Source: a virus
Virus record (IMG/VR): IMGVR_UViG_3300012850_000001
Direction: 5' to 3' (one strand)
Length of the DNA: 55,962 nucleotides
Below the pieces are notes generated by a model. That model searched no databases and was not told the origin of the DNA. It was given only the letters and a program-made list of their open reading frames with translations. Of the stretch, positions 4,586-54,114 are shown piece after piece (the first letter of the stretch is position 1; each line of letters begins with the position of its first letter). The translations under genes and the position numbers were made by a program.

Positions 4586-4614
4586 TTGACGGTTCCCCCT
4601 AGTTCCTCCATACT
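4586..4614 (+). promoter_or_regulatory. Rightward early promoter, apparently leaderless.
   Basis: TTGACG, 17-nt spacer, CATACT, then 6 nt and ATG 4621. No SD is visible. Confidence 0.55.
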
Positions 4615-4620
4615 GGCGGC

Positions 4621-4875
4621 ATGGCGACGAACACACTTCACCGACTCGACCCGGAGCAGGTGCGGATCGGGGAGACTCTGCGCACCCTGTGGGAGCAGCA
4701 GGGCTACAAGTTGGGCGAGTTCGCAGGCGAACTGGGGATCTCCTACGCGTACCTGTCGAACATCGCAGCCGGGCGCAAGCGCCTGACACCGCAGCTCCTC
4801 GCGAAAGCCTCACGGGTGCTTCGCGTGCGGCAGGTCGCGATCGTCCGGGACGGCTACTACGAGGACGCGGCGTGA
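4621..4875 (+). CDS. Cro-like XRE-family HTH protein.
   Basis: LGEFAGELGISYAYLSNIAAGRK HTH. Position opposite the repressor. Confidence 0.7.
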   Translation: MATNTLHRLDPEQVRIGETLRTLWEQQGYKLGEFAGELGISYAYLSNIAAGRKRLTPQLLAKASRVLRVRQVAIVRDGYYEDAA

Positions 4876-9964: not shown

Positions 9965-11529
9965 GCGCCAACCTCACGGTCACGGACTTCTTTTGCGGCG
10001 CCGGCGGCTCGTCGACCGGCATGACCGAGGTCCCCGGCCTCACGGTCGTCATGGCCGCGAACCACTGGGCCCTCGCGATCGAGACCCACAACCAGAACCA
10101 CCCCTACACCGACCACGCAGCCGCGGACCTCCACCTCGAGGAGCCGTCGTTCTTCAAGAAGACCGACATCCTGTGGGCGTCGCCCGAGTGCACGAAGTGG
10201 TCGCAGGCGAACGGGACCGCCCGGCCGGCGATCGAGGAGGGGTTGTTCGAGGACCCGCTGTCGTCGGACGCCGCGACCCGCTCGCGTCTCCTGATGTTCG
10301 ACGTCCTCAAGTTCGCCGAGTACCACCAGTACCGGGCGATGATCATCGAGAACGTCGTCGACATCGCGACCCAGGAGAAGTACCGGCTCGCGTGGCACGA
10401 GTGGCGCCGCCAGCTCCGTGCCCTCGGGTACCGGTTCCGGGTCGTCTCGCTGAACAGCATGCACGCCCAGATGCTCGGCGACCCCGCCCCACAGTCCCGC
10501 GACCGGATCTACATCGTGTGCTGGCGCGAGGGCGAGCGCGCCCCCGACGTCGAGCGCGCGATGCGGCCGAAGGCGTGGTGCCCGAAGTGCGACGCCATCA
10601 TCGAGGCGTCACAGTCGTGGAAGAACGGCCGCGTCGTCGGCAAGTACCGGTCCCAGTACCTCTACGTGCACGGCGCCTGCGGGGCAGTCGTCGAGCCGAC
10701 GTGGCTGCCGGCCGCCGCGGCGATCGACTGGTCGATCCCCGGTGAGCGGATCGGCGACCGGTCGAAGCCCCTCGCGGAGAAGACGCAGCTCCGGATCGCC
10801 GCCGGCATCGCCAGGTACTGGGGCCCGCTGCACATCGAGGAGTCCGGCAACCAGTACGACGCCGCGGACCCGAAGCACCCCCAGCACGGCGACCCGAACG
10901 CCTACTACCGGGCGTGGCCGACCAGCGAGTACATGCGGACCCTGACGACCCGCGAGACGCGCGGGTTCGTGCAGCCGCCGTTCGTCGCCGAGATGTACGG
11001 AACGAGCACCGCGCGCCCGGTCACCGAGCCGGCCGGGACGTTCACCGCAGGCGGCAACCACCACGCGCTCGTCATGACGAACCAGCGGCAGAACCGGGTC
11101 CGCACGACGAGCGAGCCCATGCCGACGAGCACCACCGCCACCGGCGGCGGGCAGGCACTCATCCACCGGATGAACAGCGGCGGCGCCGAGATGACGACAC
11201 CGATGTTCGAGGAGCTGCGGACCCTGACGACGAAGGGCCACCAGGCACTCGTGCAGTCCGGGCGCCCGAACGTGACCGTCGCCGACCTGCGGGCCGCGCG
11301 CGAGCTGATGCCGGACGTCCTGTTCCGGATGTTCCGCCCGCACGAGGTCGCCGCCGGCATGGCGTTCCCCAGCACGTACCGCTGGGACGCCATCGACCCG
11401 AAGACCGGGAAGCCCGCCACGAATGCCGACGTCACGAAGATGGCCGGCAACGCCGTCACCCCGCCGTGCTCCCGTGACCTCGCCGCCACCGTCTACGAGG
11501 CCCTCACCGGAGAGGCGGTTGCGGCATGA
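9961..11529 (+). CDS. DNA (cytosine-5) methyltransferase.
   Basis: DFFCGAGG (motif I), SPECTKWS (PC motif IV), IIENV (motif VI), GNAVTPP (motif X). ATGA overlap at the start. Confidence 0.9.
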   Translation: MSANLTVTDFFCGAGGSSTGMTEVPGLTVVMAANHWALAIETHNQNHPYTDHAAADLHLEEPSFFKKTDILWASPECTKWSQANGTARPAIEEGLFEDPLSSDAATRSRLLMFDVLKFAEYHQYRAMIIENVVDIATQEKYRLAWHEWRRQLRALGYRFRVVSLNSMHAQMLGDPAPQSRDRIYIVCWREGERAPDVERAMRPKAWCPKCDAIIEASQSWKNGRVVGKYRSQYLYVHGACGAVVEPTWLPAAAAIDWSIPGERIGDRSKPLAEKTQLRIAAGIARYWGPLHIEESGNQYDAADPKHPQHGDPNAYYRAWPTSEYMRTLTTRETRGFVQPPFVAEMYGTSTARPVTEPAGTFTAGGNHHALVMTNQRQNRVRTTSEPMPTSTTATGGGQALIHRMNSGGAEMTTPMFEELRTLTTKGHQALVQSGRPNVTVADLRAARELMPDVLFRMFRPHEVAAGMAFPSTYRWDAIDPKTGKPATNADVTKMAGNAVTPPCSRDLAATVYEALTGEAVAA

Positions 11530-12137
11530 GTCCCGACCTTCGGGCGCGGACGCTGACCCGCCCCCACACCCAGGACACGACGATCCCGGACGTCTGGCGT
11601 TCGGATGCGGCTTGCCTCGATGTGGACCCGGACCTGTTCTTCGAGCCGGCGGGCGGCGAGTCCGCGGCTGACAAGGAGGCCCGAGTCGACGAGGCGAAGG
11701 CGGCCTGCGCGGCCTGCCCAGTCCTCGACCAGTGCCTCGCTGACGCTGCCGGGGACCGCTACGCGATCCGTGGCGGCATGACACCGGACGAGCGGACGAT
11801 GCGACCCGCTGCCCGCAAGGTCCCGCCGTCGCGGCTGACGTCGACGCGTGACCGAGTGGTCGCGCAGGCAAAGCAGGGAGTGGCGCCCGCGCAAATCGCC
11901 CGAGTCCTCGGACTGAACGAGCGGTCCGTGTACCGGTACATCAAGCAAGCCCGCGACGCCGGCGACCTGCCCCGCCCCACCGAACGCACGCTCGACGCCC
12001 CGACGGCTGACCACAGGTGCGGCACCTACGCAGGCGCCCAGGCCCACACCCGACGCGGCGAGGAGCAGTGCGCCCCGTGCCACGACGCGGCAGCGACGTT
12101 CTACCGGAACCGCAAGTCCCAGGAGGTGGCGGCATGA
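11526..12137 (+). CDS. WhiB-like Fe-S transcription factor fused to a C-terminal HTH.
   Basis: AACLDVDPDLFF...CAACPVLDQC...GGMTPDER, followed by AQIARVLGLNERSVYRYIKQAR. Confidence 0.8.
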   Translation: MSPDLRARTLTRPHTQDTTIPDVWRSDAACLDVDPDLFFEPAGGESAADKEARVDEAKAACAACPVLDQCLADAAGDRYAIRGGMTPDERTMRPAARKVPPSRLTSTRDRVVAQAKQGVAPAQIARVLGLNERSVYRYIKQARDAGDLPRPTERTLDAPTADHRCGTYAGAQAHTRRGEEQCAPCHDAAATFYRNRKSQEVAA

Positions 12138-25043: not shown

Positions 25044-25117
25044 GCCCCTGTAGCTCAGAGGATAGAGCGCACTTCTGGCGAAGGTTGAGGTCGCGGGTTC
25101 GAGTCCCGCCAGGGGCA
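25044..25117 (+). tRNA. tRNA-like gene with an Arg-type body and a non-canonical anticodon arm. Isotype unresolved; the best 7-nt loop gives anticodon GGC.
   Basis: Acceptor GCCCCTG/CAGGGGC, D arm GCTC-AGAGGATA-GAGC, T arm GCGGG-TTCGAGT-CCCGC. The anticodon region CACTTCTGGCGAAGGTTG is one nt too long for a standard arm. Confidence 0.7.
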
Positions 25118-25171
25118 CAAGAGAGCGAGAGGCCCCGGGACGTCCATCCCGGGGCCTCTCCTGTCTCTTGT
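25117..25171. terminator. Long hairpin after the tRNA-like gene (candidate bidirectional terminator).
   Basis: ACAAGAGA-gc-GAGAGGCCCCGGGA-cgtcca-TCCCGGGGCCTCTC-ctg-TCTCTTGT. Confidence 0.7.
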
Positions 25172-25231: not shown

Positions 25232-25321
25232 CTTGACAACCGTCAACTGCCCTGCGTAGCCATGTACGTCACTCTCGGGTGAATCTGTCCGTTCGGCCAC
25301 CTCACCCGGTCCAAGCTCTCG

Positions 25322-25327
25322 TACGCT
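25322..25327 (+). promoter_or_regulatory. -10-like hexamer TACGCT, 6 nt before ATG 25334 (candidate leaderless promoter).
   Basis: CTCGTACGCTTGTTCGATGC parallels CTCGTACACTCGTTCGATGC at 24687. An exact TTGACA lies at 25233-25238 further upstream. Confidence 0.45.
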
Positions 25328-25333
25328 TGTTCG

Positions 25334-25591
25334 ATGCACTCCGGTTCGGCGGACAGGCTCGCGTTGGCGCAGCGGATCCTCAACTCTCACGGAGTCCCAC
25401 CAGGACATCACCGCGACGTCGACCGGCCGATCCCCGTGAGGGTGCGGCTCGAGTGGGAGCGCGACGGCGTTCAGGTCATCGAAACCATGGCGGTCGAGTG
25501 GACGTCCCACCTGGTGAGGGTGTGGATGAACGACCGCCGGTGGATGCTCGGGGCGGTGTGGGTGGGCGCGGAGGACGTGCGTCGGGTGTGA
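25334..25591 (+). CDS. Hypothetical protein.
   Basis: Mostly GC3-rich ORF. The stop TGA is part of a junction motif. Confidence 0.55.
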   Translation: MHSGSADRLALAQRILNSHGVPPGHHRDVDRPIPVRVRLEWERDGVQVIETMAVEWTSHLVRVWMNDRRWMLGAVWVGAEDVRRV

Positions 25592-25618
25592 CACGGAACT
25601 GGTGACCATGACCGCATG
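25589..25618 (+). promoter_or_regulatory. Junction motif copy: TGACAC-N10-ACCATG-ACCGC-ATG.
   Basis: Start codon at +27 from the T of TGACAC. No SD. Confidence 0.5.
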
Positions 25619-26895: not shown

Positions 26896-27812
26896 AGGTG
26901 ATCGGGTTCGCCCTGTCGTATGTGCACGCCCGCCGCATCGGCGCGGAGCTCGCGCTGCACCACCTCCTGGCGCACCTCGCCGGCCAGGGTCACGACGTCC
27001 AGGTCGTCACGACGACTGCGGTCCCACGGGCCACGATCGACGGTGTCCACGTCATACCGGCGAACGCACGCCGCCCTCAGGGGGACGTGATCGTCGTGAA
27101 CGCCGGCCTGGCGGGGAAGGCCCGCCAGTGGTGGCCGCACACCCCGCTGGTGATCTGGGCGCACAACAACCAGGTCCCCACGATCCTCGACGTCCGGGCC
27201 GGCATGGCGAAGGGCAACGCCGCCCTGGTCACGAACACCGACCACATGAGGGACGTCTACCGTTCCGTCCTGCAGCTCGACTCGACGGTCCTGCACCCAC
27301 CGATCAACCCGGGCCCGGTGACCGACGCGGGCGACAGCGTCGCCCTCATCAACCTGACGCCCGACAAGGGCTCGGACGTGTTCTGGGACCTCGCCGCCAC
27401 CAACCCGCACCTGCCGTTCCTGGGCGTCCGCGGTGGGTACGGGACGCAGGACGTCCGAGCGCTCGACAACGTCAGCGTCGTCGACCACGGCGACCTGGCT
27501 GACGTGTGGGCCCGCACCCGCATCCTGCTCGTCCCGTCGCGGCACGAGTCGTACAGCATGGTCGCCGCTGAAGCCGCCACCCGCGGCATCCCCGTCATCG
27601 CCGCGGACCTGCCCGGGATCCGCGAGGCCGCGGGACACGGCGGGACGTACGTCATCAACACCTGGCAGGCCGCCCTGGACACCACCCTGGCCCGGTGGGA
27701 CGAGAAGCACACGAACGCACTCGTGCACGCCGCATCCACGCAAGCCGCCAACGAGCTGACCGCCGTCACCGCCCTGATCGAACAGTTCCGTGTGACAGAA
27801 CGGGCCGCATGA
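26892..27812 (+). CDS. Glycosyltransferase, GT4/GT1-like (GT-B fold).
   Basis: ILLVPSRHESYSMVAAEAATRGIPVIAADLPGIREA (EX7E region). Confidence 0.8.
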   Translation: MKVIGFALSYVHARRIGAELALHHLLAHLAGQGHDVQVVTTTAVPRATIDGVHVIPANARRPQGDVIVVNAGLAGKARQWWPHTPLVIWAHNNQVPTILDVRAGMAKGNAALVTNTDHMRDVYRSVLQLDSTVLHPPINPGPVTDAGDSVALINLTPDKGSDVFWDLAATNPHLPFLGVRGGYGTQDVRALDNVSVVDHGDLADVWARTRILLVPSRHESYSMVAAEAATRGIPVIAADLPGIREAAGHGGTYVINTWQAALDTTLARWDEKHTNALVHAASTQAANELTAVTALIEQFRVTERAA

Positions 27813-27994
27813 TCAGCCCCATGGCCAGGACACCCGACGGGCAAGAAGCACGCACCATCACGGTGCCCGTCCGCTTCACCCCCACCGGTGCCGAGCACCT
27901 CGACGCAGCCCGCGGCAACCTGACCCGCTCCCAGTACCTGCGCAAGCTCGTCGCCGCCGACGTGCGGGAACGCCGCATCCGCCCGAAGACCTAG
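27809..27994 (+). CDS. Ribbon-helix-helix (CopG/Arc-like) protein.
   Basis: ITVPVRFTPTGAEHLDAARGNLTRSQYLRKLV. ATGA overlap. TAG stop. Confidence 0.65.
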   Translation: MISPMARTPDGQEARTITVPVRFTPTGAEHLDAARGNLTRSQYLRKLVAADVRERRIRPKT

Positions 27995-28012
27995 AAGACG
28001 CACGATCACTTC

Positions 28013-28165
28013 GTGCAGGTGGCGGAGAACATCCACTTCGACTACATCTCCGCGGACATCCTGGTGATGACGATCCGGTACGTGATCGGCAAGTTCGGCG
28101 CCGGTGGCCACTTCGTCTTCCTGAAGTGCGAGGACGTGCCTGGTCTGCTGTTTCGCCCCCGGTAA
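28013..28165 (+). CDS. Unlisted small ORF (50 aa from GTG), in frame with the RHH gene beyond its TAG. Ends in TAA.
   Basis: Strongly GC3-rich frame: VQVAENIHFDYISADILVMTIRYVIGKFGAGGHFVFLKCEDVPGLLFRPR. Confidence 0.4.
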   Translation: MQVAENIHFDYISADILVMTIRYVIGKFGAGGHFVFLKCEDVPGLLFRPR

Positions 28166-28645: not shown

Positions 28646-28888
28646 GTGGCACCCTCGTCCGCGGTTCAATGGCACATGCCTATCCGCCAGGCGATTCGCG
28701 AGGGCCGTGAGATGCGCCGCGCCCTCGAGAAGCACGGCGTAGAGGTCCGAGACCGGCAGATGGCGCAGTCCCTGCTTGATGGGTGGCTGCGCATCCGGGC
28801 AATGAATGGATGCTCCGCCGACGACTACGTGCGAGCACTCACCCAGCAGGTGGACCGCCAGGAGCGAGAGCGCGACAACTCGGTCTGA
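28646..28888 (+). CDS. Hypothetical protein. The start is uncertain (GTG 28646 or ATG 28676).
   Basis: GC3-rich ORF. The stop is part of TGACACCCCC. Confidence 0.55.
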   Translation: MAPSSAVQWHMPIRQAIREGREMRRALEKHGVEVRDRQMAQSLLDGWLRIRAMNGCSADDYVRALTQQVDRQERERDNSV

Positions 28889-28915
28889 CACCCCCGGGCG
28901 GACGCTGACCCCATG
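28886..28915 (+). promoter_or_regulatory. Junction motif copy: TGACAC-N10-ACGCTG-ACCCC-ATG.
   Basis: Exact TGACACCCCC. Start codon at +27. No SD. Confidence 0.5.
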
Positions 28916-30352: not shown

Positions 30353-30439
30353 GTCGGGAGTCTGGCAGCACTGGGACTCGCCCCGGTGGGTGATTCTGTG
30401 TGACGGATCGAGTGGCACCCTCAACCGCACGATCGGCCC

Positions 30440-30640
30440 ATGACGTTCACGACAGAGACAGGCGCCACCTACGAGGTCGACGGCAACCGGTACCGCCGCA
30501 CCGACACCCAGTCCCGCTGGGCACCCTGCAGGCTCATCACCGCGGTCCCTGGGCGGGTGGCGCGGCTCATGATCCACCGTGCCGGCGAACCCGTGTGGGG
30601 CTACCTCGTCACTACACCCGTCACGAGCGTGACGCCGTGA
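30440..30640 (+). CDS. Hypothetical protein.
   Basis: ORF preceded by CCCTCAACCGC. Confidence 0.55.
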   Translation: MTFTTETGATYEVDGNRYRRTDTQSRWAPCRLITAVPGRVARLMIHRAGEPVWGYLVTTPVTSVTP

Positions 30641-32933: not shown

Positions 32934-32987
32934 GTCCGTCTGATACCCCCGCGTTGACACTCCCTCCATGAACCTGGGAGGCCACGC

Positions 32988-34589
32988 GTGAGTCAGCCGC
33001 ACATCCACGACCAGTGGGCCGCCCTGTCGTACATCCCCGACCTCGCCGGCGACCGCACCCGCCCCGACGGCTCCCCGACGTGGCTTGACGACTTCGATGC
33101 CCGCCGCCTGACCGCCTACCAGGTGCTGTCGGCGTACACCGACAACACGCGTCGGTACTGGCTGCCCGCGTCCATGTGGGTTCGACCGGTCCGCGCCCGT
33201 GAGCTCGGCGTCAGCATCGACTCCTCGTCAGCGGAACAGTCCCGTGAGTACGGCGACCCTGCCCTCGTCGTGAACACCGCCCGCGCCCTGCTCCTCGGTG
33301 ACGACCAGACCATCACGTGCGACGACCAGACAGCCCTGGACTTCCTGAACGACTGGGCGACGAAGGAACGCGTCGGGCAGAAGCTCCTCGAGGGCGAAGA
33401 GCACACCATCACCCAGGGAGACGGCGTCCACGTGCTGCACCCGTCCGGCGCGAAGGGGCGCGTCCGGCACCGCGTCTACGACCCTGGGTTCTACTTCCCC
33501 GACACCCGCACCCCCGTCGACGGGTGGGACGACGACGACTTCCCCCCGATCGTGCACCTCGCGTGGGAGTGGATCGACAACGACCACGTCACGTGGATCC
33601 GCCGCACCACCTACCAGATGACCCAGCTCGAGGAGGCGCGCGGCACCCAGTGGGGTGACGCCACGGAGTGGACGTGCATGTACCGGGTCGTCGACTACCC
33701 AGCCGACCAGCTCCGCTCCGGTGCGACCGTGTACTCAGAGGAGATGGGCCGCAACAGCAAGGACGTCGTCGAGTGGACGGACCTGCTCGTCGACTTCATC
33801 CCCGTCGTCCACGTCCCCAACGACCCCTCCACCGAGCGCACATGGGGCCGGTCCCTGCTGCTCCTCGTCGGGCAGATCCTCGACGACCTGCAGAACACCG
33901 ACACCGACCTCGCCGCCGCGTCCCAGTCCGCGTCCCCCGCGTTCATCACCACCGGCGCCCCCGCGGGCGGCCCGACGGGTGTGCCCGGCGAGATGATCGG
34001 CCTGCCCGAGGGTGCCGCGGGTGGATGGGCGGACACGTCGAAGAACCTGACCGCCCTCACCGGGTACATCACGTCCCTCATCGAACGGCTCGCTCAGAAC
34101 ACCCGCCTCTCCCAGGTGCTCCTCGGTGCGATCTCCCCCGACCAGGTCCCGTCCGGGTACGCCCTGCAGCTCGGGTTCGCGCCCGCGCAGTCCCTCGTGC
34201 GGGAGATGCGCGCCGTCCGCGACGAGAAGTACCCGCTGATCCTGCGGTTCGTGCTGCGCCTGTCCCAGGCGTGGGGTTGGTACGCCCCGGGCGAGACCCC
34301 GGACGCGACCGTGACCCTCGGGGCTGCGTTCCCGTCGGACCTGCCCGGCGCCATCGCCGCGGTGAAGGACCTGCTGCCCGTGCACGGCCTATCGACGGAG
34401 ACCGCGGTGAAGATGCTTGCCGCCGCCGGCCTCCCGATCGATGACGCGAAGGCTGAGGTGCAGCGGATCCGGCAGGAGTCCTACGAGGACGCGGTCCGCC
34501 TGTTCGAAGCCACCGGCAACGCGGCTGCTGCAGCCGACATGCTCGGCGTCGACCCGGTCACCGTCGTCGTCCCGCCCGTATCCGCGTGA
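32988..34589 (+). CDS. Portal protein.
   Basis: Size and position after TerL. GGAGG SD before the GTG. Confidence 0.85.
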   Translation: MSQPHIHDQWAALSYIPDLAGDRTRPDGSPTWLDDFDARRLTAYQVLSAYTDNTRRYWLPASMWVRPVRARELGVSIDSSSAEQSREYGDPALVVNTARALLLGDDQTITCDDQTALDFLNDWATKERVGQKLLEGEEHTITQGDGVHVLHPSGAKGRVRHRVYDPGFYFPDTRTPVDGWDDDDFPPIVHLAWEWIDNDHVTWIRRTTYQMTQLEEARGTQWGDATEWTCMYRVVDYPADQLRSGATVYSEEMGRNSKDVVEWTDLLVDFIPVVHVPNDPSTERTWGRSLLLLVGQILDDLQNTDTDLAAASQSASPAFITTGAPAGGPTGVPGEMIGLPEGAAGGWADTSKNLTALTGYITSLIERLAQNTRLSQVLLGAISPDQVPSGYALQLGFAPAQSLVREMRAVRDEKYPLILRFVLRLSQAWGWYAPGETPDATVTLGAAFPSDLPGAIAAVKDLLPVHGLSTETAVKMLAAAGLPIDDAKAEVQRIRQESYEDAVRLFEATGNAAAAADMLGVDPVTVVVPPVSA

Positions 34590-34758: not shown

Positions 34759-35127
34759 ATGGGCGTGTTCGGTCTGCCGGACGAGTTCATGGCCTACCAC
34801 TGGTCGCCCTCGTCGCGCCGAGACAGCATCCTCGCCGGCGGGCTCCGCATCCGGTCCGAGTCCCACTCTGCACCGATCCGGTACCCGTACATCGCCTTGG
34901 CCCTCGACCCCGTCATGGCGTGGGGCATGTCCGGCGACTCGTTCCCCGACGTCGAGGGAACGTGGGACCTGTGGGGTGTGTGGTCCGGGTACGGCCTGAA
35001 CGCCTACGAGGTCATCCCGAGCGACGACGGACAGTCGGCACGCGAGCTGCGCACGTACCGGTCGGTCCCCGCGAGGCACGTGCGGTACATCGCGACCCGT
35101 GACGGTTCTGTCGCACAGAACGTGTGA
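34759..35127 (+). CDS. Hypothetical head-module protein with an ART/Tpt1-like N-terminal motif.
   Basis: AYHWSPSSRRDSILAGGLR resembles the YH-x-(T/S)...IL..GL motif of DarT/Tpt1-type folds. This is a weak inference. Confidence 0.3.
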   Translation: MGVFGLPDEFMAYHWSPSSRRDSILAGGLRIRSESHSAPIRYPYIALALDPVMAWGMSGDSFPDVEGTWDLWGVWSGYGLNAYEVIPSDDGQSARELRTYRSVPARHVRYIATRDGSVAQNV

Positions 35128-35178
35128 CACCCCCAGGCCGATGGTGAGCCCACCACAACCACCGATCAGGGAGAAGTG

Positions 35179-36353: not shown

Positions 36354-36889
36354 CCCTCATCGGGATCTCCGGGCGGAAGCGGTCCGGCAAGGACACGTTC
36401 GCTGCCCGCCTCACCGGCGTCCACGGGTACACCCGCGTCGCGTTCGCCGACCCGCTCCGGGCCATGGCTCTGGCCCTCGACCCGCTCGTGCGGACGACCA
36501 GCGGGCACACCGTCCGCCTGGCCGAGCTCGCCGCGTTCGAGGGCTGGGAGCGGGCGAAGAACCACGCCGAGGTCAGGCGCACCCTGCAGCGCCTCGGCAC
36601 CGAAGCCGGACGCGCGGTCCTCGGCGACACGATCTGGATCGACACCGCCATGCAGCATGTCGACCAGGTCAACGGCCCCGTGGTCATCACTGACGTCCGG
36701 TACCCCAACGAGGCAGACGCCATCCGCGCCGCCGGCGGCATCGTCCTACGCATCGACCGACCCGGCCTCACCTCGAGCGACGTCCACCCGTCCGAGACAG
36801 CCATGGACGACTACCCGCACTTCACCGCCCGCATCGTCAACGACCGATCGATCGCTGCCCTGCAGCGGACCGCTGACCGGTTCGTGTGA
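36350..36889 (+). CDS. T4 gp1-like deoxynucleoside monophosphate kinase.
   Basis: ISGRKRSGKDT, RRTLQRLGTE, VITDVRYPNEADAIRAAGGIVLRIDRPG, HPSET and IVNDRSIAAL all parallel T4 gp1. Confidence 0.85.
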   Translation: MTLIGISGRKRSGKDTFAARLTGVHGYTRVAFADPLRAMALALDPLVRTTSGHTVRLAELAAFEGWERAKNHAEVRRTLQRLGTEAGRAVLGDTIWIDTAMQHVDQVNGPVVITDVRYPNEADAIRAAGGIVLRIDRPGLTSSDVHPSETAMDDYPHFTARIVNDRSIAALQRTADRFV

Positions 36890-37002
36890 CACCCCCTCCC
36901 CCACGATGCACGCAACCCGGCAACGGGGCGCTGACCGCAGGCGACGAGTGCGGGCACACCCATGGTGTGGACCCTTTCCGATGCAACCCCAGGGAGTGAA
37001 CC

Positions 37003-38586: not shown

Positions 38587-38994
38587 GTGGCACAGGGACA
38601 GGCTGCCCTCGTCGAGTCGCCCGCTGGCGACCTCATCGTCAGCCAGGGCGCCGACAACACGTACTCGTTCCGGTACGGCACCAACGACGGCGCCGTGACG
38701 ACGTGGGTTGACCTGACCGACTGGGACGCCCGTGCACAGTTCCGTGCCCGTCCCGGAGCGGACGTCTGGCTGTCCCTGACGACGGACCCGGCCGCGGTCT
38801 CGCGGATCACGCTCGACGGTCAGGGGTACGTGTCGATCCACGTCCACCACACGACCACTGAGGACGCTGCCTGGAACTCGCCGGCGCGCGCGAAGGGCGT
38901 GTGGGACCTCGAGCTCGTCGCCCCGGACGGTGAAGTCACCCGCCTGGTCATGGGGGTCGTGACGGTCAGCGCGGATGTGACGCGCGATGAGTGA
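38587..38994 (+). CDS. Hypothetical structural protein.
   Basis: GGAGG lies before GTG 38587. In the frame of track ORF 38398..38994. Confidence 0.6.
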   Translation: MAQGQAALVESPAGDLIVSQGADNTYSFRYGTNDGAVTTWVDLTDWDARAQFRARPGADVWLSLTTDPAAVSRITLDGQGYVSIHVHHTTTEDAAWNSPARAKGVWDLELVAPDGEVTRLVMGVVTVSADVTRDE

Positions 38995-40045
38995 GGTCGT
39001 GGAGGTCGTCCAGTACCCGTCCGTCGTTGTCGAGGTGCCGCGCGCGGTCGGTCCCGTCGGACCGCAGGGCCCGCAGGGTGTCCCCGGCGAGACCGGACCT
39101 GCAGGCGCGCAGGGCCCCAAGGGTGACCGTGGCGACAACGGCGCCACCGGGGCGTCCGGTGCCACTGGTGAGGCTGGTCCCCGCGGAGAGACTGGCGCGC
39201 AGGGCGCCCAGGGTCCTGCGGGACCGAAGGGCGACCCGGGCCCCGTCGGCCCGGCTGGTCTGACGTGGCGGGGCACGTGGGCGTCGGGGACGGCGTACGC
39301 CGCTGACGACGCCGTGTCGCATGTGGGCACGAACGGTGTCGTGTCGTCGTACTTCGCTGTCGCTCCGTCCACCGGGCAGGAGCCCGCTGAGGGTGCGTCG
39401 ACGGCGTACTGGGCGATTCTCGCCCAGGAAGGACCGCGCGGTCCCGAAGGCCCAGCAGGTGCCACCGGCGCCCAGGGCCCGACTGGGGCGAAGGGGGATC
39501 CGGGTGCCAAGGGTGACACCGGTGAGACTGGTGCGACCGGTCCTGCCGGCGCCCAGGGGCCGAAGGGTGACACTGGCGCGAAGGGCGACACTGGCGCCAC
39601 CGGTGCACAGGGCCCTGCAGGTTCGACTGGGGCTCAAGGCCCGAAGGGTGACACGGGCGCGACGGGCTCGCAAGGCCCGAAGGGTGACACCGGCAGCACT
39701 GGCGCGACGGGTCCTGCGGGCCCGGGGTTCGCGTCCCACGACACCACGCTCACCGGAGCGACGGGCGACGGGACGATCACGCTCGCGTCGTGGGCTTCGC
39801 TGATCAAGGTGCAGGTGTCGGCCGCGACCAGGTTCCGTCTCTACCGCACGACGGCGCAGCGGACCGCGGACGCGGCGCGCGCGTTCACGACGAAGCCAGT
39901 CGGTGACGTGTGCCTCCTCGACGTGAAGCTCGACGCCGCCGCCACGATGTGGCTGAACCCAGCCCCCGTTGTCGGGAGCACGGGCACGACGTACTACACG
40001 CGCACCGACGGTGCCGCGGACGTGACACTCACCTGGGAAGGGTGA
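38987..40045 (+). CDS. Collagen-like (Gly-X-Y) fibre protein.
   Basis: Two long GXY blocks, including repeated GPKGDTGA units, and a non-collagen C-terminus. Confidence 0.85.
   Translation: MSEVVEVVQYPSVVVEVPRAVGPVGPQGPQGVPGETGPAGAQGPKGDRGDNGATGASGATGEAGPRGETGAQGAQGPAGPKGDPGPVGPAGLTWRGTWASGTAYAADDAVSHVGTNGVVSSYFAVAPSTGQEPAEGASTAYWAILAQEGPRGPEGPAGATGAQGPTGAKGDPGAKGDTGETGATGPAGAQGPKGDTGAKGDTGATGAQGPAGSTGAQGPKGDTGATGSQGPKGDTGSTGATGPAGPGFASHDTTLTGATGDGTITLASWASLIKVQVSAATRFRLYRTTAQRTADAARAFTTKPVGDVCLLDVKLDAAATMWLNPAPVVGSTGTTYYTRTDGAADVTLTWEG
39047..39728 (+). repeat. In-frame Gly-X-Y triplet repeats in two blocks, approximately 39047-39262 and 39431-39728.
   Basis: Translation shows G at every third residue. 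DNA repeats of ggcccgaagggtgacac. Confidence 0.8.
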
Positions 40046-40048
40046 CCA

Positions 40049-40987
40049 ATGGCAACGACGACGTTCAGCGCCGCCCCGACGAACGGCGCATCCGGCACGG
40101 GCACGGAGATTCAGTCGTGGGTCCAGGCGATCCACAATTCGCTCATCGCCATCGGGATGGTGCAGACATCCGACACCGGCCAGGCAGTCATTTCCTCGTT
40201 GACCAACCCGAGTGGCACGGTCATCTCTGCTGGGTACGAGATCTGGCGTTTCAACGACGCCCTGCAATCGACGTACCCCCTGTACTTCAAGCTCGAGTAC
40301 GGGCGTGGCGGGGCGACGTCCAACCCGGTGATGTGGCTGACCGTCGGCAAGGGGACCAACGGGGCTGGCACGATCACCGGGGTCGTGTTCCCTCGCATGC
40401 TCCTTGGCTACAGCGGCACCACCGGTTGGGCTAGCTCGACCGCTGCAACGGGCTACGCATCGTCCGATGGCGGTGCGATGTGTGCGGTGTTCCCCTTCGT
40501 AGGGATGACCTCGGTCGTCTCGCCGCCCTGCTTCCTCATCGAGCGTGCGCGCAATGTAGACGGCACACCTCGAGGGGACGCACTCGCTGTCGCGGCCAGC
40601 GGAGGTGCAGGTAGCACGTACGTGACGGTTGCGTACATGGACTGGGCGACTGGCGTGAACGCGATGAGCGGCGCAGTGGCGCTCGTCCCCTACTCGGTCG
40701 GGGGGACGGTCATGGGTTCCGGGACGAGCCTCGCTTCCGGCGTCATCGGACCGATCATCCCGGCCCTGGCCCTCGTTCCAGGGGTGGTTCCCTGGCAACC
40801 GCTGAGCGTGGTGGCGTTCCCTCCTGGCGACGTTCCCGCGACCCCGGCGACAATCCACGCGCTCGGCTCGGATCGCACGTACCTGCCGCTGCCGGCAACG
40901 GCAATGAAGGGATGGGTCAAGGCAATCAGCCCGTCCTCATCGACGCCCCTCGAGATCAGTGGCGGCATCGCCTTGCTCTGGGAGTGA
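40049..40987 (+). CDS. Fibre/receptor-binding-type minor structural protein.
   Basis: YEIWRFNDALQSTYPLYFKLEYGRGG segment, recalled from actinophage minor tail/fibre proteins. Confidence 0.55.
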   Translation: MATTTFSAAPTNGASGTGTEIQSWVQAIHNSLIAIGMVQTSDTGQAVISSLTNPSGTVISAGYEIWRFNDALQSTYPLYFKLEYGRGGATSNPVMWLTVGKGTNGAGTITGVVFPRMLLGYSGTTGWASSTAATGYASSDGGAMCAVFPFVGMTSVVSPPCFLIERARNVDGTPRGDALAVAASGGAGSTYVTVAYMDWATGVNAMSGAVALVPYSVGGTVMGSGTSLASGVIGPIIPALALVPGVVPWQPLSVVAFPPGDVPATPATIHALGSDRTYLPLPATAMKGWVKAISPSSSTPLEISGGIALLWE

Positions 40988-40990
40988 GCC

Positions 40991-41179
40991 GTGGCAACCA
41001 GCGAATGGCGAATCTGGTCCGGTATCGAGAACGAAACGGACGTCGACGCCGACGTAATCGGCACGACCGTCGGAACAGCCGTGTCCGCGAACTACTCCCC
41101 GGCCCTGTTCTTCTATCTCGACAAGGCCGGCATCAAGGTCGACCCCGTGCCCACCTCGGGTCAGGGGTGGCCCCGGTGA
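40991..41179 (+). CDS. Hypothetical small protein.
   Basis: GTG after GGGAG. Confidence 0.5.
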   Translation: MATSEWRIWSGIENETDVDADVIGTTVGTAVSANYSPALFFYLDKAGIKVDPVPTSGQGWPR

Positions 41180-41210
41180 CCTACACCCCCAACGGGACGA
41201 TGAGCGCATG
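41177..41210 (+). promoter_or_regulatory. Junction motif variant: TGAC-CT-ACACCCCC...ACGATG-AGCGC-ATG.
   Basis: Same 3' half as the other copies. Start codon at +31. Confidence 0.4.
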
Positions 41211-41543: not shown

Positions 41544-42532
41544 CCCAACCGGACGCGATCGAGTCCCTCGCCTCCGCCCTGATCGCTGACCTCACCGCCG
41601 TCGTCGACCAGCTCGAGGCGGCGATCCGGGACGCGATGCCCGGCTGGTTCCACCTCACCCCACCTGCCCGCGTCATCCGGTTGCGTGAACTGCAGACCAC
41701 CTTGCTCGCGATGATCAACGACGCGGACGCCATCGCAGCGAACCGGGTCGTGGCGACGATGCAGACCGCCTACGAGACCGGCGCGTGGGCGGCAGCCATC
41801 GGCGCCGGCGCCACCGCTGGGTTCTCCGGGATCGACGTTGATGCCGTCACCCACCTCGCAACCGACACCATGAGCAACCTCCTGCAAGCCACCAAGGGCA
41901 TGCGCGAGGACGTCAAGCAGGTCATCCGAGAACTGACCCGCGACCAGGTCCGCACGAAGCTGTACGTCGGGCAGACCGCCATCCAGGCCGGTCAAGACCT
42001 CGCAAAGACGATGGCGGACCGCGGCATCACTGCGGTCGTGTACTCCAACGGCGCGCACGTCAGCCTCGCCCAGTACGCCGAGATGGTCATCCGGACGAAG
42101 ACCGCAGAGGCGTACCAGGAAGGCGGCCTCAACCAAGGCGAGCAGCTGGGTATCGACTGGTGGGAGGTCATGGACGGCCCCGGGTGCGGGTGGACGTCAC
42201 ATGATGACCCGCAGAAGGCCGACGGCATGATCGTGCCCCTCGCGTCCGCCCGGGCGCACCCGCTGAGTCACCCCAACTGCCGACGGTCAACGACCCCACG
42301 TCCGGACATCGCATCCCTGTCGGACGCGCAGGACGCCACACCCACACCGACGACGTCAACCACTCGCGTGTGGGACGCAGCCGTGCGTGCGCAGGCTCAG
42401 GCCAACCGTGCCGTCGCGACCTCCACCACCCCGGCACGGGCCAGTGCAGGGCTCGACACCGCTGCGGGTGTCATCCCGAACACGCCCGCCGGTCGACGGT
42501 TCGCCGCCACCCTCGCCAAGCACACGGCCTGA
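41540..42532 (+). CDS. MuF-like minor capsid (head morphogenesis) protein.
   Basis: VVYSNGAHVSLAQYAEMVIRTKTAEAYQEG...HPNCRR, typical of SPP1 gp7/Mu F. Confidence 0.75.
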   Translation: MTQPDAIESLASALIADLTAVVDQLEAAIRDAMPGWFHLTPPARVIRLRELQTTLLAMINDADAIAANRVVATMQTAYETGAWAAAIGAGATAGFSGIDVDAVTHLATDTMSNLLQATKGMREDVKQVIRELTRDQVRTKLYVGQTAIQAGQDLAKTMADRGITAVVYSNGAHVSLAQYAEMVIRTKTAEAYQEGGLNQGEQLGIDWWEVMDGPGCGWTSHDDPQKADGMIVPLASARAHPLSHPNCRRSTTPRPDIASLSDAQDATPTPTTSTTRVWDAAVRAQAQANRAVATSTTPARASAGLDTAAGVIPNTPAGRRFAATLAKHTA

Positions 42533-42559
42533 CACCCCCACACCCACCATGCGGGCATG
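42530..42559 (+). promoter_or_regulatory. Junction motif copy: TGACACCCCC...ACCATG-CGGGC-ATG.
   Basis: Start codon at +27. Shares the 18-mer CCCACCATGCGGGCATGA with the copy at 53956-53985. Confidence 0.5.
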
Positions 42560-42895
42560 ACCCTGAGCGCCTTCACCGTGCACGCCGAACCTGGTGACGT
42601 CACGGTCACGGTGAACGGGCACACGATCCCCGCGGCTCGGGTGATTATCGACGCCGACGGTGGCGTCCCTGTCTTGACGGTCATCGCGGCCGGACCGGTC
42701 GCACTCGACGGGACCGGCGTCGTTGAGACCGTCCGTGACCCCACACCGGCGGAGCTGAACGAGGCCGCGATCGGCGCCCTCGCAGCCATCGACGCAGGCG
42801 AGCTCGAACGCCGCACATCCGCGAAGATCCGTGCCGGCCGCAACGACGTGTACCGGGTCGTCCTCGAGACGTTGAAGGAGATGGCCGATGGTTGA
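42557..42895 (+). CDS. Hypothetical structural protein.
   Basis: ORF after the junction motif. Confidence 0.6.
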   Translation: MTLSAFTVHAEPGDVTVTVNGHTIPAARVIIDADGGVPVLTVIAAGPVALDGTGVVETVRDPTPAELNEAAIGALAAIDAGELERRTSAKIRAGRNDVYRVVLETLKEMADG

Positions 42896-43298: not shown

Positions 43299-43726
43299 CA
43301 CTCGAGGTCACGGGCGGGGCCATCGGTCAGGCCCTCGCGACCCTGTCGACCCGGATCGACGGGGAGATGTCCCGTGTCGTGTTCCGTGCGGGTGCCGAGC
43401 TGCAGACCCTCATCCGGGCGAAGGCAACCTCCGCGTACCACCCTGACCGGGCGTCGTACCGTCGCGGCCACATCCCCGGAACGGGCCCGGGCCCGAACGT
43501 CTTCACGGGCGACTACCGCCGGTCCATCACCCTCACCACCGGATACACGGGTTCCACTGCGGTCGCGGTCGTTTCGACGAACGCACCCCAAGCCCGGGCC
43601 CTCGAGTACGGGCGTCCCGGGCATCAGCCCGCGTACCCGCACTGGCGTCCGGCGGCGTTCGAGATGGACCGCAAGTTCCGTCAGGCCGTGCAGGAAGCGA
43701 TCGCGAAGGCGGTGAGCGGCCAGTGA
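43295..43726 (+). CDS. HK97 gp10-family head-tail joining protein.
   Basis: PNVFTGDYRRSITL...APQARALEYG. Confidence 0.6.
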   Translation: MTLEVTGGAIGQALATLSTRIDGEMSRVVFRAGAELQTLIRAKATSAYHPDRASYRRGHIPGTGPGPNVFTGDYRRSITLTTGYTGSTAVAVVSTNAPQARALEYGRPGHQPAYPHWRPAAFEMDRKFRQAVQEAIAKAVSGQ

Positions 43727-44145
43727 GCCTGACCGAGACCACCGGGCCCTTGACCGCGGTGCAGGATCTGTTGACCGCGCACATGCCCGAAGGGTGGCGG
43801 ACGCTCCTCGACGAGGGCGAGTACGCCGTCGGGACCGTCACCGTCGAGACGGTCACCCCGCCACGGACCGAGTACTTCGTCATGGGCGGCCCCGACAAGG
43901 CCCACATGCTTATCCAGACCACCACCGCCGCATCCACACGCACAGGTGCGCGCGTCGCCGGCGACAAGGTCCGCACCATCCTGACCGGTGTCGACCGCCG
44001 AAACCGGCTCCTGACACCCATCAGCCGGGACGGGTTCGTGTTCGACAACCCAACCACCACCGCTGACGGGCACGCGGACCTCGTCGACGGAACACACCTG
44101 TGGGTCGAGACCTTCACCCTGGCCTGGCAGGACCGAACCGAGTGA
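43723..44145 (+). CDS. Tail terminator-like protein.
   Basis: Position upstream of the major tail gene. Confidence 0.45.
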   Translation: MSLTETTGPLTAVQDLLTAHMPEGWRTLLDEGEYAVGTVTVETVTPPRTEYFVMGGPDKAHMLIQTTTAASTRTGARVAGDKVRTILTGVDRRNRLLTPISRDGFVFDNPTTTADGHADLVDGTHLWVETFTLAWQDRTE

Positions 44146-44206
44146 CACCCCCCGCCTGAGGGTGAGGGCAGCAGCAACACCGCTGCCCAACCATTCAGGA
44201 GCCAGC

Positions 44207-49337: not shown

Positions 49338-49367
49338 TGACAGTCAGCCACGCACCATGACGGCATG
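49338..49367 (+). promoter_or_regulatory. Junction motif copy: TGACAG-N10-ACCATG-ACGGC-ATG.
   Basis: Start codon at +27. No SD. Confidence 0.45.
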
Positions 49368-49724
49368 ATCGGACCCTCGTACACCTCCAAGGCGACGCAG
49401 GCGATCCTCGGGCCCGCGCACTCCCAGCTCATCCCGAACCGCCTGTGGGTCGGATGGCTCGACGCGTCCGGAAACCTGATCGCGATGTCCGGCACGTACC
49501 TCGCACACACGGTCTTCGGCCCGATCGCCGACGGTGTCGCCAACATCTCCGCCGTCGACTGCGGTATCGCGGGAACCGGGTGGGCAATCGCGAAGGTCGG
49601 CCTGTTCGACGCAGCAGGTGGAAACCTGATCGTGTCGTGCGACCTGCCGTCGGTCGCTTCTCCGACTGCTGGGGCCCCGTTGGGCTTCGCAGCCGGTGAC
49701 CTGAAGTTCACGGTCGCCGCATGA
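49365..49724 (+). CDS. Minor tail protein.
   Basis: ORF after the junction motif. Confidence 0.6.
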   Translation: MIGPSYTSKATQAILGPAHSQLIPNRLWVGWLDASGNLIAMSGTYLAHTVFGPIADGVANISAVDCGIAGTGWAIAKVGLFDAAGGNLIVSCDLPSVASPTAGAPLGFAAGDLKFTVAA

Positions 49725-52700: not shown

Positions 52701-53008
52701 GTGAGCTCCTGGCACTCGTGGGGAACCCGCTGACCGCCGAAGACAACCCGTGGTCCGACAAGGCGGACGAACTCGCGGACCGCAGCATGATGATGGCGTG
52801 GGGTTGGCGTGCCCAGCCGTGCGGCTACTACCCGAAGGAGTACTCGAACCCTGAGACCTCCGAGGACGCGGCGCCCGTGACCGGCAGGTTCGTCGATGAC
52901 GCATCGTGGGACTACGCGTCCGCGCAGCCGCCGTGGGTGTGGGTCGCTGAGATCGCGTCCGCCGGCTGCTACATCGAGGGCCGGTTCCTTCCCGGGGTCG
53001 ACTCGTGA
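49721..53008 (+). CDS. Large minor tail protein with a peptidoglycan-binding domain.
   Basis: GVSDWQRRVGQPVTGTFSQDDRARAFEVQRAAGIQQDGIVGPQTW (PG_binding_1-like). Confidence 0.75.
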   Translation: MTYELNTVGLDVEDTVVTSLHPSENFADANPFDIQTSSGTVVAAALLRFTNTPPPLGTTSWQHTIDVSVRTVTAGSVTLGFWVLPDGCHDTDTWDTQNEAVAAAFAATPAGTVVVDSVNWASRSVPLALEEGQITGDDLGIMVAPIDGVAQLHSSENEIVPQIRATFTMDAVVVHNIDASTMDLGPIASIDAGDITLNAVAGPTSYPHVVDSAGRRVLRCDGAMAFMVDTGGPATWPSPMITFALVADFHDAYQVWVRSGTVEVNPTSETPFVVMGVPLVADIPTGLHSWVMTSDASGSRLICDGVTVAAGEPGEGPVSGFTFLYSDSSADIAIARGWQVAFSEADAQALSLELLVGTGVQLQAEGTWNITGSATISTGLWEPPAIPPATRGGSATPPPPPEPQDPPPGVPATVITRHSEVMPAPVLDDKGFPVDWHPSSVVHAPYGVLQIVVEGVDVTYWADAPTPFPTWSRVEPFGSEQATLTFPQITAHMDLPDWCMPGAAVDIRFKRTNGDLVHCFAGAVDTFNHREDDGVFTVEARGVVFVDDLQLRPPAFLTAPRDIGDVVADVLNTSVSRRHHKIDPVVTGCETSVLGGWEPRVTGYVQQLLATAVKKGRQWTVKCEVRSPVIELKDTDTIHWSVTNGQRGIAVDLTQDWSQAPNAIYGEGISPTGGRWRNAMYPNWRPDNTPAYPNSSPTATLTVGSTDSGTTSGRGVSDWQRRVGQPVTGTFSQDDRARAFEVQRAAGIQQDGIVGPQTWAASFGTGSNTGTLDCFFLPIAYAPEVMPRTYGPDGDDLGVNPDYDEDILRVDDKIDFGQGVTKKQGKAAARETLAREINPGWSGTITLTADPEEMSRFDVREGQNVRIRRFRGKTVVAHVAGVEFAEDSVRVTVDTNARDYPTLDAIKDRERNATDPAKALIKRLNKGSVTDARATFDAESPAGEVPKHALFPNLWTVIRVPFGSYGQISRTTLTTTGSASAFAVAVFAEPITAGELLALVGNPLTAEDNPWSDKADELADRSMMMAWGWRAQPCGYYPKEYSNPETSEDAAPVTGRFVDDASWDYASAQPPWVWVAEIASAGCYIEGRFLPGVDS

Positions 53009-53958
53009 CGTACCCCGGTGACTGGTTCCTGCCAGACCCGCAACCCGTGTTGAGTGTCGGCTCCCTGCAGAGCGCTGAGTCCCTCGTCATCCCTGAACCA
53101 GGGGAAGGCCTGCCGTCACCGTGGCAGGACTGGACGACGTTGGACCTGATCCCGAACGGGGAACTGTTCGCCAAGGACTACGGCGACGTCGACCACAACT
53201 GGTACACCGCCGTCCTGGCCGCGCAGTCGTCCCTGTACGTCCAGGGTTCGGCGGCGCACACGGACTACCCGTGGCAGCTGGGCGCCATCGTCAACCAGTT
53301 CAACTGGAAGCCTCTCAGTGCGGACGAGTACGCGTACCCCACGCCTGCCTCCATGCCGGAGGGGGCGATCGGGTGGGAGTTGGAGCCCGGCACGAGTTCC
53401 CTGTTCGAGGGACGGTTGCGTATCCGCGGCGCCATCAGGTTCACGCAGGGAACTGCCGGCCTGGCAGGTCACCCCGTGAAGTTGCGGGCCGCCCGCCCAC
53501 CGTTCATCCCCGGACCAGACCCGCAACCTGATGATCGGATCTCCTACGAGATGCGCGCGGTCAACGTCGGGTTCACCGGCCTTGCAGGCTACGAACCGAC
53601 GGACACGAACCTCTGGGACGAGATCGCTTCGGTGACGATCGGGGCAACGAACCCCACCCCGTTCGACGCCGACATGGGGTACTGCCCCGGGACCTTCATC
53701 GCCGCGTTCTTCGAGCCCGCCCTGACTGGTGCGGCTCCTGATGAGTGGCATGACCCGATCGCTCAGGTGCGGTTCGAAGAGATCACTCGAGTGGTGTCAC
53801 CGATCCGACGCATGCGGTGGATCTTCGGCGACCAGGGTGCGTGGCGGCTGCGGCAACGGCAGACGCTGACCGGGTCGGACTCGTGGCCCCTTCGGCAGAG
53901 GCAGAACGGCCTCCACTCGGGCACTTGGACGCCAAGGCAACTGCAACGCGGGGTGTGA
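53005..53958 (+). CDS. Minor tail protein.
   Basis: GTGA-coupled. Position. Confidence 0.6.
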   Translation: MTYPGDWFLPDPQPVLSVGSLQSAESLVIPEPGEGLPSPWQDWTTLDLIPNGELFAKDYGDVDHNWYTAVLAAQSSLYVQGSAAHTDYPWQLGAIVNQFNWKPLSADEYAYPTPASMPEGAIGWELEPGTSSLFEGRLRIRGAIRFTQGTAGLAGHPVKLRAARPPFIPGPDPQPDDRISYEMRAVNVGFTGLAGYEPTDTNLWDEIASVTIGATNPTPFDADMGYCPGTFIAAFFEPALTGAAPDEWHDPIAQVRFEEITRVVSPIRRMRWIFGDQGAWRLRQRQTLTGSDSWPLRQRQNGLHSGTWTPRQLQRGV

Positions 53959-53985
53959 CACACCCCTGCCCACCATGCGGGCATG
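53956..53985 (+). promoter_or_regulatory. Junction motif copy: TGACACACCC...ACCATG-CGGGC-ATG.
   Basis: Start codon at +27. At the head of the lysis cassette. Confidence 0.5.
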
Positions 53986-54114
53986 AGCACACCCGACCCC
54001 ACCACCGCGACAGACGAAGAGTCCGTCGAGTCGGCCGCCGCCGAGACCCTCGGCGAAGAGGTCGGCATCCCCGTCCCTGACGGTTCCGACGAGCGCCCGG
54101 ACGGTGAGGTCTGA
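53983..54114 (+). CDS. Small acidic protein (43 aa), below the track cutoff.
   Basis: ATG at +27 of the junction motif. TGATG-coupled to the lysin gene. Confidence 0.45.
   Translation: MSTPDPTTATDEESVESAAAETLGEEVGIPVPDGSDERPDGEV

Follow-up and report, generated by a model that had tools for sequence, protein, structure and literature searches.

The 55,962-nt DNA analysed here, IMG/VR record IMGVR_UViG_3300012850_000001 (hereafter, the window), is a 56-kb genome of a temperate, siphovirus-type phage with 69% G+C, and carries a repeated element, exemplified by positions 42530-42559, at gene junctions of its late region. It is fairly likely that these sites are reiterated late promoters of a phage of a Cellulomonas-like actinobacterium, many of them giving leaderless mRNAs, in which an upstream box takes the place of the -35 element. 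A preliminary description of the window had presented the 10-mer TGACACCCCC as a stop-codon-associated junction motif and had offered three roles for it, namely stoperator-like binding sites, unusual short-spacer promoters, and signals for reinitiation or RNA processing; the second is retained here in a sharper form, while the first proved weak and the third unsupported.

With the T of TGACAC taken as position 0, the aligned copies showed that TGACACCCCC makes up only the 5' part of a bipartite element with rigid spacing, TGACAC(CCCC)-N5-[S-A-N3-T]-G-N4-C-A, in which the second box follows TGACAC at a gap of exactly 9 nt, G is usual at position 21 and C-A occupies positions 26-27 in most copies. 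The exact 10-mer was found at 28886, 35125, 36887, 42530 and 44143, always on the + strand, its rarity by chance being borne out by an expectation of 0.28 copies and by the fact that none of 100 shuffles reached five. The variants at 53956, 25589, 49338 and 41177 read as earlier stated, the 18-mer CCCACCATGCGGGCATGA is common to copies 42530 and 53956, and the palindrome GTGTGACAC is present in four copies. N-A-N3-T is present at positions 15-20 in all copies, including the three that had been regarded as partial (35125, 36887 and 44143). There is a site before the portal gene, as had been noted, but in a different register: the TTGACAC at 32954 is the -10-like box GACACT of a site that begins at 32941, which therefore does not clash with the portal Shine-Dalgarno (SD) sequence. 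Together with three sites missing from the earlier list, at 27793 (TGACAG), 30413 (TGGCAC) and 32941 (TGATAC), these results indicate that the original observation was correct and understated.

The relatives compared (designated by L numbers) included one with 94% capsid identity (L001-L003) and others with approximately 50% (L004-L007), of which L004 is a prophage of Cellulomonas taurus. A position weight matrix (PWM), trained on relatives only and then applied to the window, returned 17 sites on the + strand and one on the - strand, compared with approximately 2 per strand in shuffles. Twelve sites scored 16 bits or more (25589, 27793, 28886, 30413, 32941, 35125, 36887, 41181, 42530, 44143, 49338 and 53956), and are described below with their scores, the open reading frames (ORFs) that end in them and the genes that follow; a thirteenth, doubtful site is added.

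25589..25618, + strand: site 1, TGACAC-N9-GACCAT-N6-ATG, PWM 18.4; ORF 25334-25591 ends in the TGA and ATG 25616 starts a glycosyltransferase gene without SD.
27793..27823, + strand: site 2, TGACAG-N9-CATGAT-N7-ATG, PWM 18.3; ATG 27821 starts a 57-aa ribbon-helix-helix (RHH)-like gene, and the same arrangement lies upstream of the homologues of that gene in L053, L054, L073 and L088.
28886..28915, + strand: site 3, TGACACCCCC-N5-GACGCT-N6-ATG, PWM 30.7; ORF 28646-28888 ends in the TGA and ATG 28913 starts a small-terminase-like gene.
30413..30442, + strand: site 4, with a variant box, TGGCAC-N9-CACGAT-N6-ATG, PWM 19.3; it lies just 3' of a terminator-like hairpin (30378-30393), and ATG 30440 begins an ORF of 66 aa that lies upstream of the large terminase gene.
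32941..32970, + strand: site 5, with a variant box, TGATAC-N9-GACACT-N6-A, PWM 18.1, the box being TGGCAC in L002; the predicted start at 32968 would provide the portal GTG at 32988 with a 20-nt leader containing the SD GGGAGG or, alternatively, would begin a 7-codon mini-ORF (32968-32991, MNLGGHA) ending on that GTG.
35125..35154, + strand: site 6, TGACACCCCC-N5-GATGGT-N6-A, PWM 28.0, conserved in L002; ORF 34759-35127 ends in the TGA, and the scaffold gene at 35176 follows a leader with the SD GGGAGAA.
36887..36916, + strand: site 7, TGACACCCCC-N5-CACGAT-N6-A, PWM 29.6, with homologous sites in L002, L004, L005, L007 and L097; a dNMP kinase gene ends in the TGA, and the decoration gene (37003) and, beyond it, the major capsid gene (37404) follow after a leader of approximately 89 nt.
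41177..41210, + strand: site 8, with a degenerate box, TGAC-CTACAC-N9-GACGAT-N6-ATG, PWM 16.8; the upstream gene ends in a TGA 4 nt before the box and ATG 41208 is without SD.
42530..42559, + strand: site 9, TGACACCCCC-N5-CACCAT-N6-ATG, PWM 27.2; the TGA is the stop of a minor head protein gene and ATG 42557 is without SD.
44143..44172, + strand: site 10, TGACACCCCC-N5-GAGGGT-N6-A, PWM 29.8; ORF 43723-44145 ends in the TGA, and the major tail gene at 44207 follows a leader with the SD CAGGAG.
49338..49367, + strand: site 11, TGACAG-N9-CACCAT-N6-ATG, PWM 18.2, intergenic; the TGA is not a stop and ATG 49365 is without SD.
53956..53985, + strand: site 12, TGACACACCC-N5-CACCAT-N6-ATG, PWM 24.7; the TGA is the stop of ORF 53005-53958, and ATG 53983 starts a 43-aa ORF that heads the terminal (lysis or membrane) gene block.
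40023..40051, + strand: doubtful site, TGACAC-N9-AAGGGT with an ATG at position 26 (40049), PWM below threshold; an SD-like GGGAAGGG is present, and the site is kept in L002 with the ATG at position 27.

In an alignment of 39 sites from the window and its relatives, A16 and T20 were fixed by the search pattern itself; among the columns outside that constraint, position 21 was G in 32 sites, position 26 was C in 28 and position 27 was a purine in 28, position 15 was S and never T, and a bias towards C was observed at positions 5-9. The 9-nt spacer was free, conservation being limited to the two short boxes. The pattern TGACA-N11-A-N3-T occurred 12 times on the + strand of the window and never on the - strand (approximately 2.1 expected for both strands together), and the spacing was exact in 138 kb of DNA fetched by protein homology alone, where the gene strand gave 32 matches to TGACAC-N10-A-N3-T and the opposite strand none, and each of the alternative spacings from 3 to 21 gave between 0 and 4. 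Four further TGACAC copies without a second box lie in frame at 39514-39685, inside the collagen-like tail fibre gene 38987-40045, and are due to the repetitive coding sequence of that gene. A mimic of the motif, a tandem array of GTGACACCCCCCCAGTGACTCT with a 22-nt period, was found on the reverse strand of L043 (approximately 10531-10600), an unrelated viral contig of 64% G+C, and was left out of the motif statistics.

Conservation in related phages, which had been put forward as a check, was found for the boxes, the gap and the gene strand, often at orthologous junctions, while the bases of the spacer varied. At the junction after the minor head protein, six diverged phages have TGACAC-N9-(CACCAT/GATCAT/GACCAT/GACGAT/CACGAT/CACCCT)-N6-7-ATG, and boxes and spacing are kept at the junction orthologous to site 9 in L002, L005, L007, L064 and L097. 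A pattern scan of viral contigs revealed further high-G+C contigs with 3-6 sites on the same strand, some of which (L036, L092 and L096) have structural modules with no detectable similarity to those of the window. Essentially no sites were present in 60 kb of other actinophage DNA. A scan of genome contigs for the capsid protein found nothing, and a strict-pattern scan of genome contigs gave 88 loci, nearly all of them single chance matches in unrelated taxa, with starts at position 27 in 5 of the 88, which is not an enrichment. In several relatives, the leader that runs from the motif site to the decoration gene has a similar beginning, GACcgcc..gagcggaccaggaccac (L004 9503-9600, L005 6130-6230, L007 3410-3510 and L097 6506-6600), and may be a conserved 5' UTR (untranslated region) element.

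The presence of the motif at module boundaries, in phages with unrelated structural genes, could also be expected of a boundary sequence with no role in expression, either a patch of homology for module exchange or a target of the DNA methyltransferases of the phage, which encodes both a C5 and an N6/N4 enzyme. Two short boxes separated by a free 9-nt spacer nevertheless offer too little homology for recombination, and a strict strand bias, a distribution limited to late genes and a phasing with start codons are unexpected for methylation or recombination sites, so that this explanation is scarcely credible.

The fixed distance of 27 nt between the T of the motif and the next ATG, reported earlier, was found at 25589, 28886, 42530, 49338 and 53956, and that at 41177 is 31 nt. 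When measured from the second box, the ATGs at 25616, 28913, 30440, 41208, 42557, 49365 and 53983 all lie exactly 7 nt past its T, and the ATG at 27821 has the same geometry within one base. A -10 hexamer with a start codon six bases further on is a hallmark of leaderless actinobacterial genes, and the motif sites share this geometry with the early promoter of the phage (e.g., CACCAT-gcgggc-ATG vs. CATACT-N6-ATG):

4586..4623, + strand: canonical early promoter, TTGACG-N17-CATACT-N6-ATG, for a leaderless cro-like gene.

In a set of 103 non-redundant sites drawn from many contigs, an ATG or GTG occupied position 27 in 19 cases and position 28 in 10, compared with approximately 2-3 at other offsets. 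The predicted pairing with the anti-Shine-Dalgarno sequence was significantly weaker for the candidate leaderless starts than for 64 other genes (mean -3.4 vs. -7.3 kcal/mol; Mann-Whitney p = 0.0016), whereas 32941, 35125, 36887 and 44143 have an A at position 27 and then a leader with a good SD. In Actinobacteria, a 5'-terminal ATG or GTG suffices for the translation of leaderless mRNA, and about one in four transcripts of mycobacteria has no leader (PMC4633059). The genes at position 27 would present the two traits of leaderless genes, an ATG or GTG as the first base of the predicted transcript and no SD, and their transcripts probably start exactly on the start codon, as judged from the position of the hexamer. 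Starts of leaderless type were also found without a TGACAC box, namely TACGCT-N6-ATG at 25334 (window 25307-25336) and CACGAT-N6-GTG at 28013 (27986-28015). The former belongs to an 85-aa gene, the first after the early terminator, for whose protein no homologues were found.

Such starts, together with the overlap between the motif and stop codons, might instead reflect a signal acting on RNA or translation, either termination-reinitiation over the 24 nt from TGA to ATG or an endonuclease cut at 26/27 that would generate a leaderless 5'-AUG. The TGA is indeed the stop of the upstream ORF in eight of the nine copies first listed (25589, 28886, 35125, 36887, 41177, 42530, 44143 and 53956, the exception being 49338), and across relatives it serves as a stop at no fewer than 31 of 66 sites, where one third would be expected (p = 0.015, conservative test). 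Moreover, the genes at position 27 have no SD, and three copies hold a 3-codon mini-ORF, ATG-NNN-GCA-TGA, whose stop overlaps the real ATG (42549-42560, 49357-49368 and 53975-53986), although these mini-ORFs may be by-products of a -10-like consensus ending in ATG. Against a signal of this kind, several sites of the window (49338, 30413, 32941 and 27793) and many in relatives lie away from stop codons, and both boxes are kept at many sites from which the next, SD-led gene lies at variable distance. The sites showed no common or significant RNA structure (z-scores from -1.2 to +1.2), and none matched an Rfam family; in addition, the conserved A, T and C-A start agree with promoter rules at the DNA level and with the geometry of the early promoter. 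An RNA or translation signal is therefore considered unlikely. The association with stop codons is real but partial, and cannot be upheld as the defining feature of the motif: it appears instead to be a by-product of genome compaction, whereby upstream genes in a tightly packed genome would run into the TGA of the box and co-opt it as their stop.

The distribution of the sites along the genome is in agreement with a role in late expression. The gene order runs from an integrase at one end through an immunity pair (M78 peptidase and helix-turn-helix (HTH) protein) and the cro-like gene into a long rightward early operon, which encodes YqaJ/RecT, the two methyltransferases, two WhiB-like proteins, a ParB-like protein, SSB and DnaB; the late region contains genes for glycosyltransferases, terminase, portal, scaffold, decoration, capsid and tail, followed by the terminal genes. 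The boundary between both halves is marked by a tRNA-terminator pair:

25044-25160, window coordinates: phage-borne tRNA-Ala (anticodon GGC), including the terminator directly 3' of it.
25127-25160, + strand: strong intrinsic-terminator-like hairpin with a 14-15 bp stem, after the tRNA-Ala, separating the early operon from the late region.

As had been proposed, all strong sites are located in the late region, within 25.6-54 kb, where they occupy gene junctions and face the same way as the genes. No strong site (PWM of 16 bits or more) was found in the early or immunity regions of the window, the 20 kb early operon had essentially none either in the window or in relatives, and no TGACA occurs between 4362 and 4620, in the immunity and early promoter region. 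In those relatives with early DNA available, the sites begin immediately after DnaB, none being found upstream. Additional terminator-like hairpins were identified at 30378-30393 and after the capsid gene, and a consensus scan of the stretch from 24 to 56 kb revealed no sigma-70-type promoter. Internal promoters are therefore required for the late genes, and the motif sites are the only candidates.

A late-only distribution also weighs against the stoperator-like role, in which the asymmetric TGACACCCCC would be bound by the prophage repressor, or by another phage protein, and would block elongating RNA polymerase, silencing the late genes of the lysogen. The reverse complement of the L5 stoperator consensus, CTTGACAKCCACC, resembles GTGACACCCCC. 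Furthermore, the sites share with stoperators their asymmetry, single orientation with respect to transcription and location in short intergenic spaces (PMC9283540). Stoperators, however, are spread genome-wide, whereas in the window and in relatives the sites are confined to the late region; no copy is present at the early lytic promoter or in the immunity region, where GTTCCCC-type and ATGTTCCC repeats, distinct from the motif, are found instead. Neither the invariant A-N3-T at a fixed 9-nt gap nor the enrichment of start codons at positions 27/28 is explained by repressor binding, the repressor, an HTH protein that forms a pair with an M78 peptidase, is not gp71-like, and the motif is common to phages with different early regions. 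Altogether, a stoperator function is highly improbable. The operator-like repeats of the immunity region (4455-4623) comprise GTTCCCCATCGT and GTTCCCCCTAGT as a direct pair, as well as the inverted pair GGGAACAT / ATGTTCCC, 104 nt apart.

Taking the sites as late promoters, each would consist of a weak -10-like hexamer of the sigma-70 family (S-A-N3-T, followed by G) located 6 nt upstream of a C-A start point, and transcription would begin at position 27 (± 1). The predicted start coincides, at six to eight junctions, with the A of the ATG of the next gene, and would give a leaderless mRNA for genes without SD; elsewhere, a leader of roughly 20 to 90 nt with a normal SD would be produced. The (G)TGACAC(CCCC) box, at -27 to -22 and 9 nt from the hexamer, would be read by a factor substituting for -35 recognition, so that expression would be late-specific; this reader could be phage-encoded, or else a host HTH protein resembling sigma region 4. 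In terms of the sigma-70 family, the -10 element is recognizable by the A at -11, the T at -7 and a distance of 6-7 nt to a purine at the inferred start point, while a -35 element 16-18 bp upstream of the hexamer is absent, with no conserved bases in columns -10 to -3, and the upstream box lies 8 bp too close to the hexamer to act as the -35 element of a normal holoenzyme. The position of the box and the weak hexamer suggest that these promoters would depend on an activator.

Several points weigh against the interpretation as late promoters. The start point is placed by sequence geometry only. Across a 9-nt gap, a normal sigma-70-family holoenzyme could not recognize the box as a -35 element, and a separate reader had therefore to be postulated; the -10-like box, unlike the usual actinobacterial TANNNT, never has a T at -12, and is therefore weak. 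Pfam and PHROG scans of the phage identified neither a sigma factor nor an RNA polymerase nor a conserved activator. A fusion of a WhiB domain with a C-terminal HTH was rejected as a conserved reader of the box, being unique to the phage of the window: among 5.8 billion proteins no full-length homologue was found other than itself. Finally, the use of the TGA as a stop at about half of the sites could hint at a role linked to translation. The rejected fusion is encoded as follows, a second WhiB-like gene being located at 12134-12610:

11526..12137, + strand: fusion of a WhiB domain with a C-terminal HTH (HTH_29/HTH_23, with faint similarity to sigma-70 region 4).

A sigma-54 (-24/-12) promoter was likewise rejected. 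The box sits at the location of the sigma-54 -24 element, and TGGCAC is found at 30413, yet positions 11-14 are not conserved and never read TTGC, so that a -12 element is absent. Actinobacteria are not known to have rpoN.

The geometry of the late promoters proposed here fits no known promoter class. A tentative and rather doubtful extension is that they represent a new actinobacterial promoter architecture, in which an HTH resembling sigma region 4 would bind (G)TGACAC at -27 to -22 and replace -35 recognition, the holoenzyme keeping the -10-like hexamer; the reader could be the C-terminal domain of host WhiA or a Wbl-tethered partner, in an actinobacterial counterpart of sigma appropriation. 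A reader of host origin, or else a mobile regulator, would be expected from the occurrence of the motif in unrelated phages of Cellulomonas-like hosts, and the motif would then be a portable signal for late and leaderless expression. The sequence TGACAC overlaps with the -35 consensus (TTGACA) as well as with the WhiA motif GACAC; host WhiA, which binds GACAC, is a lead. Another candidate is the 57-aa RHH-like protein (27821-27994), which is conserved in relatives and whose own gene lies behind a motif site with a leaderless start; its fold is weakly assigned (a sub-threshold NikA-like match and a single-sequence model with pLDDT 71), and it gave no match against PDB sequences. The 160-aa protein family represented at 20256-20738 (phrog_17260, more than 1,100 members with 50-89% identity; also in L187, L188 and L189) was rejected as a late regulator: it is widespread and regularly adjoins RecT, exonuclease or PDDEXK genes in actinobacterial prophages, and so belongs to the recombination module; no match to the PDB was found.

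No match to GenBank phages was obtained with the DNA of the window in modes for near and distant similarity, and the closest isolates have only approximately 34% capsid identity, hence there is no studied relative. In two of the contigs with the RHH-like gene, the large terminase gene is interrupted by an insert of approximately 1 kb between two homologous segments (L073 7035-9446 and L053 5451-7862), which may be an intein or a homing element.

If the sites are promoters, they provide a sequence rule for predicting where late transcription units lie and where genes truly start in one lineage of uncultured actinobacterial phages and prophages, including leaderless starts, which are often misplaced by gene callers. 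A geometry of box and hexamer that the standard holoenzyme cannot read points to a further transcription factor, or another mode of polymerase recruitment. As Cellulomonas taurus is a cultured host with a motif-bearing prophage, at approximately 1.28-1.30 Mb of CP051884.1, the idea is directly testable.

The arrangement can be compared with several known systems, although no description of the motif itself was found in the literature. In the middle promoters of T4 (MotA/AsiA), the normal -10 element is kept and a phage-specific box, present in many copies, replaces the -35 element, being read by a separate DNA-binding protein together with the host holoenzyme; the MotA box is centred near -30, with a gap of 11-13 bp to the -10 element. 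The sites of the window are alike in combining a -10-like element with a phage-specific box in place of the -35 in many copies per genome, but their box lies at -27 to -22 (centre near -24.5) with a 9-bp gap, their host is an actinobacterium and many of their starts would be leaderless; neither MotA nor AsiA homologues were found in the phage by Pfam and PHROG scans. The 18-bp motif of Microbacterium phages of Clusters EC/EI (PMC7302621) is also similar, with about a dozen copies per genome in small intergenic regions, in one orientation, at a set distance of 21-30 bp upstream of start codons and kept within the phage group. Its sequence is different, and the motif of the window is bipartite, with a -10-like box and a start codon often at the predicted start of transcription. 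Cluster A stoperators (PMC9283540) share the asymmetry, multiple copies, short intergenic locations and orientation with transcription, whereas the motif of the window has no operator copy at the early promoter, is late-only, and has in addition the -10-like box and the phasing with start codons. The SAS/ESAS repeats of Cluster K phages (PMC3203893) are conserved, one-orientation repeats at gene starts, sometimes placed over the upstream stop. However, SAS occupies the position of the ribosome-binding site, 3-7 bp from the start codon, contains AGGAG and is associated with non-structural genes only, while the motif of the window lies 27 nt upstream, has no Shine-Dalgarno core and is found in the structural (late) half.

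The comparison with WhiA/WhiB-dependent promoters bears on the reader of the box. The C-terminal HTH of WhiA reads GACA(C) as sigma region 4 reads TTGACA, the related sequence GACAG occurs in weakly protected parts of WhiA footprints, and the model WhiA/WhiB target sepX is leaderless (PMC10243135, PMC3781837). The GACAC motif (PMC3781837) is present in most sites of the window, TGACAG being found at two, and the phage encodes two WhiB-like proteins. WhiA sites, however, are normally located upstream of the -35 element, with variable spacing and orientation (PMC10243135), whereas the GACAC of the window is fixed at -26 to -22, inside the usual spacer region, in one orientation and with no -35 element; the sites do not belong to the WhiA/WhiB-dependent promoter class. 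Were the link through GACAC real, late expression of the phage would be tied to host regulators of cell division, and a factor of the WhiA/Wbl type at such an unprecedented position would make the system of greater interest. With respect to all of these systems, what sets the sites described here apart is their sequence, the very short gap between box and hexamer, and the location of the start codon on the predicted start point.

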